From: a bacterium
Lineage (GTDB): Bacteria > Eisenbacteria > RBG-16-71-46
Assembly (NCBI GenBank): GCA_043779265.1
Contig: JAYWEM010000071.1
Span: 1 to 24,842, forward strand
Length of the DNA: 24,842 nt
Reading direction: 5' to 3'
Made by a program: the position numbers. This document shows, piece after piece, positions 16,600-22,500 of the stretch (the stretch's first letter is position 1; every line of letters begins with the position of its first letter).

Positions 16600-19500
16600 G
16601 CTTCCTCCTCAAGAGGGCCGCGCCCGCGGCCGGATGTCTCGCGGGCAGGCCCTCTTGGCTTCCGAGATGCGCCTGTAGCTCAGGTGGATAGAGCATCGGA
16701 CTTCTAATCCGATGGTCGGGGGTTCGAGTCCCTCCAGGCGCGCCAGCCAGGCGATTGGGTCCAGGCGCATCGTACCGCCCGGGACGAGTGTGGCGGTGGC
16801 TGTAGCTCAGTTGGCAGAGCATCGGGTTGTGGTCCCGAGGGTCGCGGGTTCGAGCCCCGTCAGCCACCCCATTCCCGTCCCGGGTCGTGTCCCCTCGAGG
16901 GAGCGCCCGGGGTGCCGGAGCGTTCGCACATGAATCGTCGCGCCAAGATCGTGGTCACGCTGGGACCGGCCTCTTCGAGTGCCGAGCGCATCCGACAGTT
17001 GATCGATGCGGGCATGGATGTCGCTCGCCTCAACCTCTCGCACGGTGAGCGAGCCGAGCACGCCGCGGTCTACTCGCGGGTTCGCGCCGCTTCCGACGCC
17101 TCCGGGCACGCGGTCGCGATCCTCGTCGACCTGCAGGGACCCAAGATCCGCCTCGGACGTTTCGAGGGTGGCAGTGCGCAGATCCGTGCCGGCGATCCCT
17201 TCACGATCACCACGCAGAAGCGCCCCGGGGACTCGACCGGCTGCTCCACCAGCTACGGGGCGCTCGCGCGCGACGTGAAGCCGGGTGACACGCTGTTGAT
17301 CGACGATGGGAACGTGCGGCTCGTGGCCGACTCCACCGATGGCATCGAAGTCGTGTGCACCGTCATCGAGGGCGGCCGTGTCTCCGACCACAAGGGACTG
17401 AATCTTCCGGGCGTCCGCGTCAGCGCCCCGTCGATGACCGAGAAGGACCGCGAGGACCTGCGTTTCGCGCTGTCGCTGCGGGTCGACCTGATCGCGATGT
17501 CATTCGTGCGCAGCCCCGACGACATCCGCGACGCACACGCCATCATGGATGAGGTCGGCGCTCGTCTGCCGGTGATCGCCAAGATCGAGAAGCCCGAGGC
17601 CGTCGAGAACCTGGCGGCCATCATCCACGCCTTCGACGGGCTCATGGTGGCACGTGGCGACCTGGGCGTCGAGATCCCGCTCGAGGAAGTGCCGCTGGTG
17701 CAGAAGCTCGCGGTCCGGTTGGCGCGCGACCGCGCCCGCCCGGTGATCGTCGCGACGCAGATGCTCGAGTCCATGATCACGCACTCGCGCCCGACGCGCG
17801 CCGAGGCCTCCGATGTCGCCAACGCCATCCTCGATGGCGCCGATGCCGTGATGCTCTCGGGCGAGACCAGTGTCGGCGAGTTCCCGATCGAGACGGTGCT
17901 CACGATGGCCCGCATCATGAGCACGGTCGAGGCGCACGGCGTGTTCGAACTGGCGCCTGTGGCGCACAAGTCGGACTCGCGTCAGGACGCCATCGCCGCG
18001 GCCGCCGTGAAGATCGCCGAGGACACCCACGCTCGCGCGCTCGTCGCCTTCACCGAGTCCGGCGCGAGCGCGCGCCGCGTCGCCAGCCACCGCAGTACGA
18101 TCCCGCTGCTCGCCTTCACCTCGGAGCCCGCCGTGCGCAGCCAACTCGCGCTGCAGTGGGGCATCGAGACGTTCGTGGTGCCGAGAGTCAGCCACACCGA
18201 CGACATGGTGGAGCAGGTCAATCGCTCGATGCTCGAACTGGGCCGCGGCGCTCCCGGCGACCTGGTGGTGATGGTCGCAGGCTCGCCGCCCGGAGCCGTG
18301 GGCAGCACCAACATGGTGCGCGTGCATCGACTGGTGGCGGAGTAGGGCGCGTTGGTTCGCTGACGCGCGATGTCCGTGAGCGGCGCAGGTCCGCGAACTG
18401 GCTGCGCCAAGACTTGACTTGACGGGTTCGCGCGCGAGCGCTTGCCTCGGCTCGCCATGGGCCCGCTCATCGGGTCCGAGTCGCTCGAGGATCGAGACGG
18501 AGACGCGGATGGCGAGCGTCTGTCGCGATTGCTGCGACGAGGCGATTCGATCGCGCACACGGCACGGGCGGCGCCCGCGAAGTGGCATGGTACGAATGCA
18601 TGCCTACTCGCCCCCGCATGAGGCGACATCCGTGCGTCCGATTCCGTTGCGGCAGCTCGAGGACCACGAAATCCTCGCCGGCACCCTGCAGTCGTATCGA
18701 TCGATCCGGCGGCAAGCGGCCGGGTTCCTGAGACTGCTCGCCGAACTCGACCGTCGGCAGCTCTTTCGTGCCGCGGGCTTCCCATCGGCTCATCAGTTCT
18801 GCATCGAGCGCATGGGCATGTCCGAGGACCAGGCCTTCAAGAATCTGCGGGCGGCACGCGCGGGCCGCAGGTTCCCGATCGTGTTCGACATGATCGCCGA
18901 CGGCCGAACCAACGTGAGCGCGATCACGATCCTGTCGAAGCATCTGACTCGCACCCTCGGCGAGTCGCTGCTGCGCGACTCCGCGGGCATGACCAATGCT
19001 CAGGTGAGGAGCTTGCTCGCAGCGCGCTTCCCGCAGCCGGACGTGCCCACGGTGATGTTCGCGCTGATGACTCCGGCGGCGGAGACAAAGCTCTCCGCGG
19101 GCGTCAGCGAGATGACATGCAAACTGGCCGTACGGCCAGTTGAGGCCTCCAACCCGTTGCAGGGCATCGAGCGCCTCGAAGGGCTCTCGATCGAGGTCGC
19201 ATCGATCTCACCAGTCCCGGCGCTGGCATACACTCGCATCGCACCACTCTCGCCCGCGAGCTACGCACTTCAATGCACGCTGAGCGCTGCGGCGCATGCC
19301 AAGCTGCGCGAGGTTCAGAATCTGCTCGGGCCGCGAGTCTCCCCCAGCGACATGTCCCAGGTCCTCGAGCTCGCTCTCGATGCGTTGCTGCAACAGCTCG
19401 AGCGCTCGCGCAAGGCCGCGATCCGCCGTCCGGAACCGGAGTCGCACGCCGACGCCGAGTCGAGTGGAGCAGCACCGACGGGTCCTCGGCTCGACACCGT

Positions 19501-22500
19501 CCCGGCCAACGCCCGACACATCCCCGCCTCCGTTCGCCGCGCCGTGTGGGCCCGCGACGGCGGCGGCTGCCAGTTCGTGAGCGCCACCGGCCATCGCTGC
19601 CTGTCGCGCTCGGGAGTCGAGCTCGATCACGTTCGGCCCGTGGCGCTGGGCGGCGCGAGCACGCTCGGCAACCTGCGACTGCTCTGTCGCGCGCACAATC
19701 AACTCGAGGCCGAGCGGCGTCTCGGCAGCGAGTTCATACGAGCCGAACGCGCCGCACCTCGCTGAGGCACCTTCAACGCCGCGGATCGAGCGCCCCCGCC
19801 AGAGCCCGCGCCGCCCGCCCCCGATGCGAGATGGCGTTCTTCTCCGAATCATTCATCTCAGCGAGCGTGCGGGTCTCGCCTGCCGGCACGAAGACCGGGT
19901 CGTAACCGAAGCCGTTCGTGCCTCGAGCCTCCGCCACGATCGTCCCTTCGAGCACGCCTTCGGCCACCGCCTCGCGGCCCTCCGGCCACAGCGCGACGCA
20001 CACCGTGCGGAAGCGCGCGGTGCGCGCCGCGTCACGCGAGACTTCGAGCGCCAAGAGCAACTTGGCCACGTTGTCCTCGTACGTCGCCTGCGGGCCGGCG
20101 TAGCGTGCGGCGTGCACGCCCGGCGCGCCATCGAGGGCGTCGACCTCGAGACCCGTGTCATCGGCGATCACCGGCAGCCCTGTGAAGGCGAGCGCCGAGC
20201 GCGCCTTGATCCGCGCATTGTCGAGGAGCGTTTCGCCGTCCTCCTCGGGTGAGACGGCGCCCTCGAAATCGACGAGCGCCTCGAGCACGAGGTCGGGCAG
20301 CGACAAGAGTGATTCGAGTTCGGCGGTCTTGTGGCGATTGAACGTCGCCAGGACGAACCGCATCGGGCTCACTCGGGGATCAGTCCCGAGCCCGAGAGCA
20401 GCTTGCGCTGGCTCGCGGTGATGCGCTTGATGCCGCTCTTGGCGAGCGCCATCAGCCGCTTCATCGCCGCGTCATCGAACGGTTCCTTCTCGGCCGTGCC
20501 CTGCACCTCGATGAACTTGCCGCTGCCGGTCATCACCACGTTCATGTCGACGTCGGCCGTCGAATCCTCGGCGTAGTCGAGATCGAGGCACGGCACGCCC
20601 TTGATGATCCCGACCGAGATCGCCGCCACCGTGTCCCGCAGCGGCGCGCGCTTGAGGCCCTGATTGTTCGAGAGATGCAGGAACGCATCATGCAGGGCGA
20701 CCAATGCGCCGTTGATCGCGGCCGTGCGCGTCCCGGCGTCCGCCTCGAGCACGTCGCAGTCCATCGTGATGGTGCGCTCGCCGAAGGCCGTGAGGTCGGT
20801 GACCGCGCGCAGCGAGCGTCCGATCAGCCGCTGGATCTCCTGCGACCGCCCGCCCGTCTGGCTGGTGCGCGGCGTGCGGTCCTTGGTGGCTCGCGGCAGC
20901 ATCGAGTACTCGGCGGTCACCCAGCCGCGGCCGCTGTTGCGCATCCAGCCGGGGACGCGGTCCTCGATGCTCGCGGTGACGAGCACGCGGGTGCGGCCCA
21001 TGCGGATGAGCGCCGAGCCTTCGGCGTAGGACATGACGCCGCGCTCGAACTTGAGCGCCCGCAACTGGGTCGGGGTGCGGCCATCCGGGCGGGCGTCGGG
21101 CGCCTGCTCCTGCGGCTTCGCTTCATGCTCACGGATCGGCTGCGGTTTGCGGGTCACGGGGAGGTCTCCGATGCAGGGTTGCGGGAAGTGGGTTGAACGC
21201 GCTCGGACCACGGCAGTGCGGTCTGATCGACGACCGTCACGTGGGGGAGCGGGCGGCCGAGGAACCCCTCGGCGACGCGAGAGAAACTGCGGCGACGCGG
21301 TTCGTCGCTGAGGAAGAAGTGGTGCTGCGGGCCCTTGGTGGTCGAAGCGGCCAACTGCCCGCGCTGCGCCAAGAGCTGCGCCGTCGCGCGCGCGGCCTCG
21401 GCGCCCGCGTCGATGAGTCGGACACCCGGTCCCATGTGGGCTGACAGCAGAGGAGCGAGCAAGGGGTAATGCGTGCAGCCGAGGATCAGGCTCTCGAGAT
21501 CGGCGTTGCGCAATTCGATCAGATACTCGTTGGCGACGAGCCGGGTCACGTCGTGATCGAGCCAGCCCTCCTCGACGAGCGGCACGAACAGTGGGCAGGC
21601 GCGTGACAGCACCTGCGCTCCCGGGACGAGCGCGTTGACCGCCTGCAGGTAGGCGCCACTGCCGACGGTCGCGAGCGTCCCGATGACGCCGATGCGTCCG
21701 GACGGGCTCGCGCTCACAGCGGCGCGCGCCGCCGGCTCGATCGCGCCGACCACGGGCAGGTCGAATCGACTGCGGAGCGCATCCAGCGCGTGACTCGAGG
21801 CCGTCGCGCACGCGACCACCAGACACTTCACGTTCTGCCGGACGAGGAAGTCCGAGATCTCGAGCGAGAATCGGGTCACGGTCTCACCCGACTTATTGCC
21901 ATAGGGCAGCCGTGCCGTGTCCCCGAAGTAGAGAACGGACTCGTTGGGGAGCTGCCGGAACAGCTCCCGCACGGCCGTCAGCCCTCCGATGCCGGAGTCG
22001 AAGACGCCGATGGGACGATTGTCGGTGAGTGCGGGCATCGATTCTCCTGACGGACTCAGGGCCAATCCAGCGGATCGAGCGGTCGGTCGAGTGGCACATG
22101 ACCGCCCGCCGAGACCAGTGGACCTTGGCACACGATGCGCACTCGGCGCACGTTCGGGAGATTGGCGGCCATCGTCCGGACGATCGAACCCACGGCCACC
22201 TCCTCGGTGCGCGAGCCGCCGGCCAATCCCTGCACGAAATCCTTGGAGAGATCGAGCACCAACTCCCCGCCCTCGAGCGCATAGGCGTGACTGAGCTTCG
22301 TCGCCGCGGGCACGGTGGCCACGCCCGGACCGCGCGGTCCCTCGGCGAGCGCCTCGAGGAGTGCGGAGGCCTGAGCATGCAGCCCGTCGCGCTCGACGAT
22401 CTCGCGCGACTCGACCACCCAGCGCTCGCCCTCCTCGTTCCCGTAGTAGAGCGAGGCGGCGCGCACACCGACGGCGGTGCTGTCCGCCAGCGTCGTGCCG

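Follow-up and report, generated by a model that had tools for sequence, protein, structure and literature searches.

A chromosomal repeat of about 1.35-1.7 kb, made up of a cis region of about 230 bp and one gene encoding helix-turn-helix (HTH), ribbon-helix-helix (RHH) and HNH domains, is found at 10 loci of the Eisenbacteria genome G000, one of them in the window (the whole stretch of 24,842 nucleotides analysed). Repeats of this family are multicopy, have undergone genome-specific expansions, may be present or absent between congeners, and encode an intact nuclease under purifying selection. They feature a fixed architecture, in which TTGAC is separated by 169 bp from an extended -10 box, are targeted by IS481 insertion sequences, and carry PafBC-type promoters in one family. 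The repeats are in all likelihood selfish, and we infer that they move. We regard them, with somewhat less assurance, as damage-linked elements of the wider DUF222/13E12-HNH kind, copied by a nick-initiated, recombination-dependent process.

The copy in the window

The features of the window copy and of the adjacent genes are the following.

16912-18345, + strand: left host gene, 83-84% identical in DNA to both congeners; presumably pyruvate kinase (pyk), after the label of the first-pass annotation
18408-18430, + strand: left-end motif (family consensus roughly GAtTtcgc-TTGAC(A/G)-nn-TTT)
18419-18423, + strand: TTGAC of the left end; a second TTGAC lies at 18414-18418
18424-18587, no strand: fixed-length spacer (TTGAC to TG, 169 bp), divergent in sequence, A/T phased, with no conserved RNA structure
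18588-18597, + strand: extended -10 promoter box TGGTACGAAT (TGnTAnGAA)
18609-18616, + strand: leader motif CGCCCCCG, found in G000 also before recA, ssb, a radA-like gene and an integrase
18632-19765, + strand: element gene, GTG start, 377 aa, no RuvA-III tail
18701-19033, + strand: ParB/KorB/Spo0J-like HTH domain (aa 24-134), from structure comparison
18704-18943, + strand: weak DUF222 match (E 0.02, 15 bits against a cut-off of 24.4)
19262-19423, + strand: RHH-like domain (aa 211-264), from structure comparison
19526-19726, + strand: HNH nuclease domain, with C313, C323, D332, H333, C352, H355 and N356 all intact
19773-20372, - strand: right host gene, convergent with the element gene, presumably rdgB-like (again after the earlier label)

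Only 7 bp separate the stop codon of the element gene from that of the facing gene. A single contig from the source runs covers positions 17583-20548 at the depth of the flanks, and collapse or misjoining at the site is therefore excluded. The N-terminal domain resembles KorB (Z 6.4, rmsd 3.6 over 97) and Spo0J (Z 6.0), and the RHH-like domain MazE6 (Z 5.6, rmsd 1.8), TraM (Z 4.7) and the pCXC100 ParB (Z 4.5). The Pfam HNH match spans aa 322-354, and the protein terminates 12 aa past the HNH helix, leaving no RuvA_C domain. HTH, RHH and HNH are the only domains revealed by Pfam, NCBIfam and PDB comparisons, and no transposase or recombinase gene of the DDE, Y1, Y2, serine or tyrosine type was found in the element by the same means.

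Copies, distribution and empty sites

The G000 loci are C71 (the window copy), C67, C173, C118, C33, C155, C131, C108, C160 and C25; five of the ten are broken. An eleventh match, C139, is an unrelated protein sharing only the HNH domain, and was discarded. Family matches occur in 33 of 41 genomes, G000 and G026 included, and are missing from the other 8. The HNH reading frame, the 10 loci, the 33 genomes, the ParB-like N-domain (VIA Z 6.0-7.0 against ParB/KorB-like folds) and the extended -10 box had all been reported in the first-pass annotation, and were found again. The same annotation saw in the repeat a new kind of element of Eisenbacteria, a view that no longer stands: the family extends over at least four phyla, being present in Myxococcota, Acidobacteriota and Bdellovibrionota genomes as well (21, 24 and 40 matches in three of these), and is distantly related to DUF222/13E12 repeats.

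Copy number varies from 2 to 40 per genome. The copies lie in unrelated intergenic sites, with unrelated flanks and no conserved gene neighbourhood; a crude count of flanking-gene orientation at 57 sites gave 12 convergent, 17 otherwise resolved and 28 unresolved. In the tree, copies from G003, G011, G014, G015, G016 and G022 form genome-specific clades, as do those of the Myxococcaceae, Acidobacteriota and Bdellovibrionota genomes. H333, C313, C323 and C352 are conserved in all 128 full proteins and N356 in 126; one sequence of doubtful start (L026) was excluded from tree, residue and leader-architecture counts. Purifying selection is indicated by dN/dS values of 0.22-0.33 in the 7 pairs computed of 20 planned. 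Copies had been described as 35-75% identical and devoid of recent bursts, which fails elsewhere: other genomes host young paralogue pairs with 93-96% DNA identity, which have additional flanking DNA of variable length in common.

The family is large. At 50% clustering 1,775 representatives match at E<=1e-30 and 17,881 at E<=0.001, the looser count taking in HNH-only matches. Phage, plasmid and viral collections yielded HNH-domain-only matches or nothing, and no full-length relatives, the scan of viruses being sensitive to close relatives only. A description of the family, of its leader or of the IS481 targeting was not found in the open-licence PubMed Central and bioRxiv literature, supplements aside.

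Four of the six G000 loci compared are empty in at least one congener. The pyk/rdgB spacer is empty in both (G001:C19, 128 bp; G002:C321, 84 bp); the C118 copy is missing in G001:C256, where the flanks are 9 bp apart; G002:C181 lacks the C173 copy, the duplication in this case being imperfect and some 26-34 bp long. These three absences had been noted before, and hold. The C155 copy is absent from G001:C77, which has about 1 kb of other DNA instead. The C118, C67 and C33 copies have a counterpart at the corresponding position of one or both congeners, and are thus partly inherited vertically; by the same token, empty sites could be deletions. The suggestion of a dispersed, transposase-free single-gene repeat with its own promoter and selfish behaviour is supported by the clades, the empty sites, the broken copies and the purifying selection.

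Element ends are ragged. Terminal inverted repeats and a general target duplication remain at chance level, direct and inverted scores of own flanks equalling those of cross-pair controls. Scores above the 95th percentile occur in 3 of 70, and the exceptions are L174, with 34 bp duplicated almost perfectly, and C173. At C118 the flank can be aligned to the empty site up to a point 8 bp short of the corresponding TTGAC. The pyk/rdgB spacers of the congeners have diverged too far for the junction of the window copy to be read at the base level. No insertion event was observed, and no excision or circle joints were seen among the best-supported 15 of 107 joints, in contigs that drop rare forms. 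The conserved ends may mark only what selection keeps.

The left end and its spacer

The conserved leader starts about 230 bp upstream of the gene start, and not at the roughly 110 nt given earlier. A sigma70-like TTGAC is found 168-171 bp upstream of the extended -10 box (TGnTA) in 100 of 145 copies; in the genomic background, 13 of 2660 TGnTA have one at this distance. The strict architecture is missing in 41 of the 145. The 200-bp spacing of L036 is an artefact, as its degenerate -10 box sits at 169. All 15 Myxococcaceae leaders read have TTGAC at 168-170. Spacings in Bdellovibrionota are 169, 178, 180, 180, 188 and 189, and six leaders of this phylum lack TTGAC. Myxococcaceae and Acidobacteriota copies have the same -10 box 15 nt upstream of a leaderless ATG. 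With G000 excluded from its training, a weight matrix matched in G000 only the nine element left ends; the left motif by itself matches ordinary -35 boxes too. TTGAC is neither a host target captured at insertion, being absent from the empty pyk/rdgB spacers, nor the -35 box of a normal promoter, as TAnnnT is not present 17 bp downstream.

Spacer length is conserved across phyla, and neither sequence (identity of only 0.28-0.31) nor RNA structure is. A/T content varies with a period of 9.8 in 78 Eisenbacteria copies and 9.6 in 15 Myxococcaceae copies, in the same phase (p 0.001); no significant period was seen in the spacers of 10 Acidobacteriota copies (p 0.46) or in several small single-genome sets. 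The left end is probably bound by protein and helically phased.

Relation to DUF222/13E12 repeats and to other systems

13E12 genes have been described as insertion elements induced by damage via LexA and a RecA-independent promoter (PMC3381160) and as hotspots of gene conversion (PMC13061034). The repeats described here resemble 13E12/REP13E12 (DUF222 PF02720 plus HNH, Actinomycetota) in being dispersed, multicopy, chromosomal single-gene units of about 1.4 kb, with a helical N-terminal part and a C-terminal HNH domain. They differ in that their match to the DUF222 model is confined to its first third, in the RHH-like middle domain and optional RuvA-III tail, and in the host phyla. For the TTGAC-169-extended -10 leader and the IS481 targeting no counterpart was found in published descriptions of 13E12. 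The window protein stays below the Pfam DUF222 gathering cut-off, exceeded by 1 of 103 relatives; weak matches (E<=0.01, model positions 3-114) occur in 6 of 103. The Atlas match of the N-domain is to a cluster with 42% DUF222, and in profile-profile comparison (hhalign) with 27 DUF222 proteins of actinobacteria the alignment was confined to the middle and HNH parts. These N-domain and HNH links are weak but recurrent, and kinship is very likely.

Free-standing HNH homing endonucleases and phage HNH nickases (Gme HNH 4h9d, GVE2 HNH 5h0o) have the same fold and zinc site, and nickases are the closest structural matches of the element HNH; unlike homing endonucleases, the element occupies unrelated intergenic sites rather than one allelic target. 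RHH and HTH modules that bind and bend DNA are known from relaxosome proteins (TraM, MobC/VirD1) and from KorB/ParB. Here they are fused to HNH, with no HUH relaxase partner, and the middling Z scores speak for the fold only.

Possible links to DNA damage

The consensus of PafBC promoters is given as tGTCgg-N10-tA-N3-T in one account (PMC8635444). A related motif, (T/C)GTCCC-N10-TAnnnT, is found in 14 of 27 copies of the sister family f3, in none of 67 family f1 copies, and not in the window copy. It also precedes recA in five f3 genomes, and f3 genomes feature paired WYL genes. By their sequence, f3 copies thus use a PafBC-type promoter like that of their own recA, in hosts outside Actinomycetota. 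G000 has no WYL match, and the operator-like box of its recA is not in element leaders; damage control of the window copy would therefore hinge solely on the shared leader motif CGCCCC(C/T)G.

These same data could mean that the gene is a damage-inducible nuclease serving the host, as a repair or recombination accessory or a promoter of inversion or gene conversion, spread by ordinary duplication and transfer, the leader being no more than a complex promoter, with a site for an activator or repressor upstream. The leader motif is shared with recA, ssb and the radA-like gene, a copy immediately upstream of recA is kept in three species, selection is purifying also at a shared locus (C118 versus G002:C32, dN/dS 0.33), and one report proposes that 13E12 may benefit the host (PMC13157036). 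We consider this unlikely, in view of the relatives without any match, the five broken G000 copies, the wide range of copy number, the genome-specific clades and the lack of conserved flanks or neighbourhood.

IS481 elements at the left end

In Eisenbacteria and Acidobacteriota one IS481 clade (NCBIfam transpos_IS481, 229 bits against a cut-off of 224) is found at the element left end, 21 of 24 ends lying 6-16 bp before TTGAC. Orphan IS ends mark many left ends in genomes lacking the transposase, which might suggest that the repeat is a non-autonomous passenger of this or another IS, through one-ended or composite transposition, HNH aiding retention only. This is improbable. In G022 five IS copies are identical over 1346 bp and each is flanked by its own 3-bp duplication, while the five HNH copies are 80-95% alike, so the IS arrived after the HNH element. 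In G000 no IS end precedes any TTGAC, and no transposase match turned up in the genomes of Myxococcaceae and Bdellovibrionota that hold 21 and 40 element matches. An insertion sequence parasitising the left end provides independent biological evidence of a functional site. Adjacent deletions caused by IS481 could have sharpened the left boundary.

The RuvA-III tail and the HNH domain

The RuvA-domain-III-like tail reported earlier is real in the copies that carry it: 25 of 102 members have a Pfam RuvA_C match at E<=0.05 (the best at 1e-10), the fold superimposes on RuvA domain III with an rmsd of 1.5-2.1 A over about 50 aa, and 53 columns aligned with the RuvA of G000 show 30% identity (E 6e-4, probability 29%). 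It is present in 64 of 128 full proteins, and missing from the window copy and from the expanded Myxococcaceae, Acidobacteriota and Bdellovibrionota clades. G000 has ruvC-ruvA-ruvB, and binding of the tail to RuvB is a putative function that we hold to be an even matter, irrelevant for the window copy. The earlier proposal that hooking RuvB is an essential step of movement is hence very improbable, since half of the intact proteins, the window's included, do without the tail. Units of the IscB/HEARO type (IS200/IS605-associated) are likewise multicopy and selfish, with an HNH gene and a long conserved upstream region. An RNA-guided or RNA-templated element of this sort, the 230-nt leader being the guide scaffold, finds some appeal in the fixed length of the upstream region and in an HNH domain resembling that of IscB (VIA Z 6.5-7.7; NCBIfam guided_IscB E 6e-4, 19-27 bits in the HNH part only, far below the cut-off of 175), but is hardly credible, as the protein models have no RuvC, no Y1 transposase was found beside the gene, the folding z of the leader is about -0.4 for either strand, no consensus pair emerges from RNAalifold, the columns that covary most are not complementary, the spacer is located upstream of the promoter, and spacing shifts in helical steps.

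A model for copying

In the favoured model of damage-linked, nick-initiated copying, the element gene would be switched on upon DNA damage, and the protein would bind, on one face of the helix, both its own left end around TTGAC and the promoter region. The phased spacer of about 150 bp would be bent or looped by a relaxosome-like RHH/HTH complex, repressing the promoter as well. HNH would then nick the left end; that new insertions are started by the element's own HNH is about evenly balanced. Host repair, through RecA and in tailed copies also RuvB, would copy the unit and a variable flank into a new intergenic site, and drive gene conversion between copies too. Half of the copies would have captured RuvA domain III.

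More tentatively, the family may represent a widespread class of autonomous mobile elements relying on an HNH nickase and host recombination, with no transposase, of which mycobacterial 13E12 would be a distant branch. Its left end would be a sigma70 promoter whose two halves stand about 149 bp apart, or some 15 turns of DNA phased at ~10 bp; the HTH/RHH protein would wrap or loop it, coupling expression to a nicking complex, and a dedicated IS481 lineage would have specialised on landing at this site across phyla. The family is large and unnamed. A sharp cis end whose length and helical phase are kept in four phyla offers, for the first time, a defined substrate on which binding, nicking and transposition could be assayed in harmless hosts, and the IS481 lineage is itself a candidate tool for site-specific integration.

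The HNH repeat and its empty sites

The window copy lies in the pyk/rdgB spacer of contig C71 of genome G000:

18632-19765, + strand: element gene, 377 aa, flanked by two convergent host genes

An HNH domain at aa 322-354 is the sole Pfam domain seen in its product. Ten loci of the family are detected by tblastn in G000; five are intact, the remainder are frameshifted, truncated or interrupted. The C160 copy (about position 1300 and upstream) is broken by a transposase gene, which from its sequence we take to be IS21-like. The window site is empty in both congeners, G001 and G002, where the host genes stand side by side and the aligned flanks are separated by 128 and 84 bp, respectively. 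Positions 17583-20548 are covered by one contig from the source runs (which may be the source itself), at the depth of their neighbours. Copies are missing also at C118 and C155 in G001, the latter spot hosting other DNA, and at C173 in G002; those at C118, C67 and C33 recur in the same position in a congener. Thus, of the six loci checked, four lack the element in at least one congener, and three are inherited. The element is a real feature, and the ten loci, the empty pyk/rdgB site and the C118 and C173 absences described in the first-pass annotation are all borne out. Element matches were found in 33 of 41 genomes searched, including G000 and the unpublished G026 (32 of 40 without the latter).

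Other features were recorded in the window:

15481-15833, 16523-16871, 24504-24590: tmRNA (tag ANEQMALAA), tRNA-Pro, -Arg, -His and -Leu, none carrying an element insertion
7263-15278, - strand: gene run resembling reductive pyrimidine degradation, presumably permease, dihydropyrimidine dehydrogenase subunits, hydantoinase, ureidopropionase and aldehyde dehydrogenase

Elsewhere in G000 an unrelated HNH protein (C139:1121-2015) adjoins an integron-type integrase (C139:2009-3103), and is possibly a gene cassette.

Architecture of the left end

The leader, earlier taken to be about 110 nt long, measures about 230 bp. (C)TTGAC is found about 218 bp before the start in all nine G000 copies having a 5' end, degenerate in one. 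TTGAC lies 168-171 bp before the extended -10 box TGnTA in 100 of the 145 copies with enough upstream DNA, against a genomic background of 13 in 2660 TGnTA. Among the 41 copies without the spacing, many show a degenerate -10 at an equal distance or are of the short-leader type of the sister family f3. The spacing is kept in 15/15 Myxococcaceae leaders read, and also in those from Acidobacteriota. In both groups a leaderless ATG follows TGnTA at 15 nt, and this confirms the box as a -10. Spacings from the Bdellovibrionota genome (169, 178, 180, 180, 188, 189) differ by increments of roughly one helical turn; TTGAC is missing from six further leaders there. A shorter subfamily of about 300 aa in the same genome (G043, L316-L322) lacks TTGAC and shares an upstream GACCGTAAGCCCCCAA motif, which precedes also one TTGAC-type copy.

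Spacer identity across phyla (0.28-0.31) equals background. The spacer A/T content has a period of 9.8 bp in 78 Eisenbacteria copies and 9.6 bp in 15 Myxococcaceae copies, in the same phase (p 0.001, column permutation), and is not significantly periodic in 10 closely related Acidobacteriota copies. The left motif by itself resembles an ordinary -35 box; at normal promoter spacing the -10 would be 149 bp closer to TTGAC. Jointly, the left and promoter motifs pick only the nine element ends of G000. This architecture is new here.

Similarity among paralogues usually begins 8-25 bp before TTGAC and ends near the stop codon; flank homology with the empty C118 site stops 8 bp before TTGAC. Young pairs share extra flank, by variable amounts. 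Terminal inverted repeats are missing from the copies, as is a general target duplication (3/70 above the control's 95th percentile). Some subsets of copies (L216, L221, L226, L232, L237 in G041; L215, L228 in G042) share additional REP- or MITE-like flanks, which extend up to 400 bp upstream and 200 bp downstream and in G042 contain a palindrome.

IS481-clade insertions

Each of the five 1.37-kb IS481 copies in the single-contig genome G022 is located immediately upstream of the TTGAC of a different HNH copy; the five are identical over 1346 bp, and every one has a 3-bp duplication. Transposases at 67-72% identity sit likewise in G003, G023 and the Acidobacteriota genome. The clade transposase is 408 aa long.

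Loci of the IS481 clade
G022:C1: L245, L252-L255
G042:C1: L256-L258
G003:C30
G023:C276
G005, G014, G015, G016

Over the loci sampled, part of which were chosen as HNH loci so that the count is no blind sample, 21 of 24 IS ends fall 6-16 bp (mostly 11-12) before TTGAC; the remaining three either lie inside a different IS end or are disrupted by an additional insertion. Two distant IS481 (45-47% identity) are not at element left ends, and no end of the clade is found at those of G000. Orphan IS ends persist at many element left ends in genomes devoid of the transposase. The targeting is new here, and marks the left end as a special site.

Regulation

The sequence (T/C)GTCCC-N10-TAnnnT precedes 14 of 27 f3 copies vs 0 of 67 in family f1, and also recA in five f3 genomes. 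WYL genes, mostly paired, are present in all nine published f3 genomes, and none is matched in G000. The sequence fits the PafBC promoter architecture (PMC8635444). Paired WYL genes and TGTCCC-N10-TAnnnT recA promoters (L270, L273, L274, L275, L282) make up a PafBC-like system outside Actinomycetota. In three f3 species an element copy directly precedes recA; in two others the place is empty. One recA-adjacent copy has lost its upstream 170 bp and retained the promoter, which suggests a role of the TTGAC region in mobility or repression rather than in basic expression.

In f1 the one putative link to damage is the motif CGCCCC(C/T)G, found before the start in 74 of 94 element copies. Among 2933 crudely called G000 genes, 26 have it upstream; these include six element genes and four further genes, namely recA, ssb and those for a radA-like ATPase and for an integrase (the radA and integron labels are presumed from sequence). 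The leader just upstream of the window ssb (15864-16328, - strand) carries a CGCCCCCG motif common to recA, the radA-like gene and the element. A UPF0102 (YraN-like) gene (G000:C108:5742-6089, - strand), about 1.5 kb from the decayed C108 copy, has a leader much like the CCCGCCCCCGCGGAGT leader of the element. The conserved operator-like box CTGC(A/C/T)CA(A/T)ATGTGTA overlaps the recA promoter (G000:C69:14617-14645 and f1 recA loci), has a single occurrence in G000 under the search pattern applied, and is possibly a LexA-type site.

Relatives of the repeat

The element was first viewed as proper to Eisenbacteria. By record titles, relatives are found also in Myxococcaceae, other deltaproteobacteria, Bdellovibrionota and one Acidobacteriota genome (we assume that Marinacidobacterales belong to this phylum); three non-Eisenbacteria genomes host 21, 24 and 40 matches. 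Plasmid, phage and viral collections yielded no full-length relative. The tree has genome-specific clades, a pattern of copying within lineages or of gene conversion.

The N-domain of the window gene is the only DUF222 match in G000 (E 0.02). Matches to DUF222 positions 3-114 occur in six relatives, and one of these passes the cut-off; an Atlas link leads from the domain to a cluster in which DUF222 makes up 42%. An hhalign comparison with 27 actinobacterial DUF222 proteins reaches 96% probability, but the alignment is confined to the middle and HNH regions. We read the family as a probable distant relative of DUF222/13E12, not a member. The 13E12 family is defined by DUF222 (PMC13157036), its genes are described as damage-induced insertion elements (PMC3381160), function is undefined and gene conversion frequent (PMC13061034), and 13E12 is counted among repetitive elements (PMC10589994). 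Such repeats are of a known kind, with an unexplained mechanism. Neither the element family nor its leader nor the targeting by IS481 was found described in the openly available literature; subscription journals, ISfinder and supplements may bear on that.

The protein and its possible mode of action

AlphaFold models of the window protein (pLDDT 82.6) and of the tailed C118 protein (pLDDT 86.2) suggest, by middling scores that are informative on fold only, a KorB/ParB/Spo0J-like HTH (Z 6.0-7.0), an RHH-like domain (Z 4.4-5.6) and an HNH domain whose nearest matches are IscB, McrA and phage nickases (Z 6.5-7.7). Of 128 full proteins, 126-128 preserve the zinc and catalytic residues, with D332 retained in 119; the seven pairs for which dN/dS was computed have values of 0.22-0.33.

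That the protein is a host repair factor is unlikely. Carriage of the element as a passenger of the IS is less probable still; the IS arrives after the element, and is hence a parasite and not a carrier. The RuvA-domain-III tail, proposed earlier to hook RuvB, is real in copies that have it (Pfam RuvA_C in 10/103 and 25/102 alignment members, rmsd 1.5-2.1 A to RuvA structures, 30% identity to the RuvA of G000), but it is present in only 64 of 128 proteins and absent from the window copy, so that an essential hook is very doubtful. RNA guidance has the slimmest chance, as the spacer holds no RNA structure.

Most likely, the protein would be made upon DNA stress and bind, by HTH and RHH, the left end and the promoter region on one helical face. 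The HNH domain would then nick, and host recombination would copy the unit, with ragged ends, into a new intergenic site, the RuvA tail being an optional aid.
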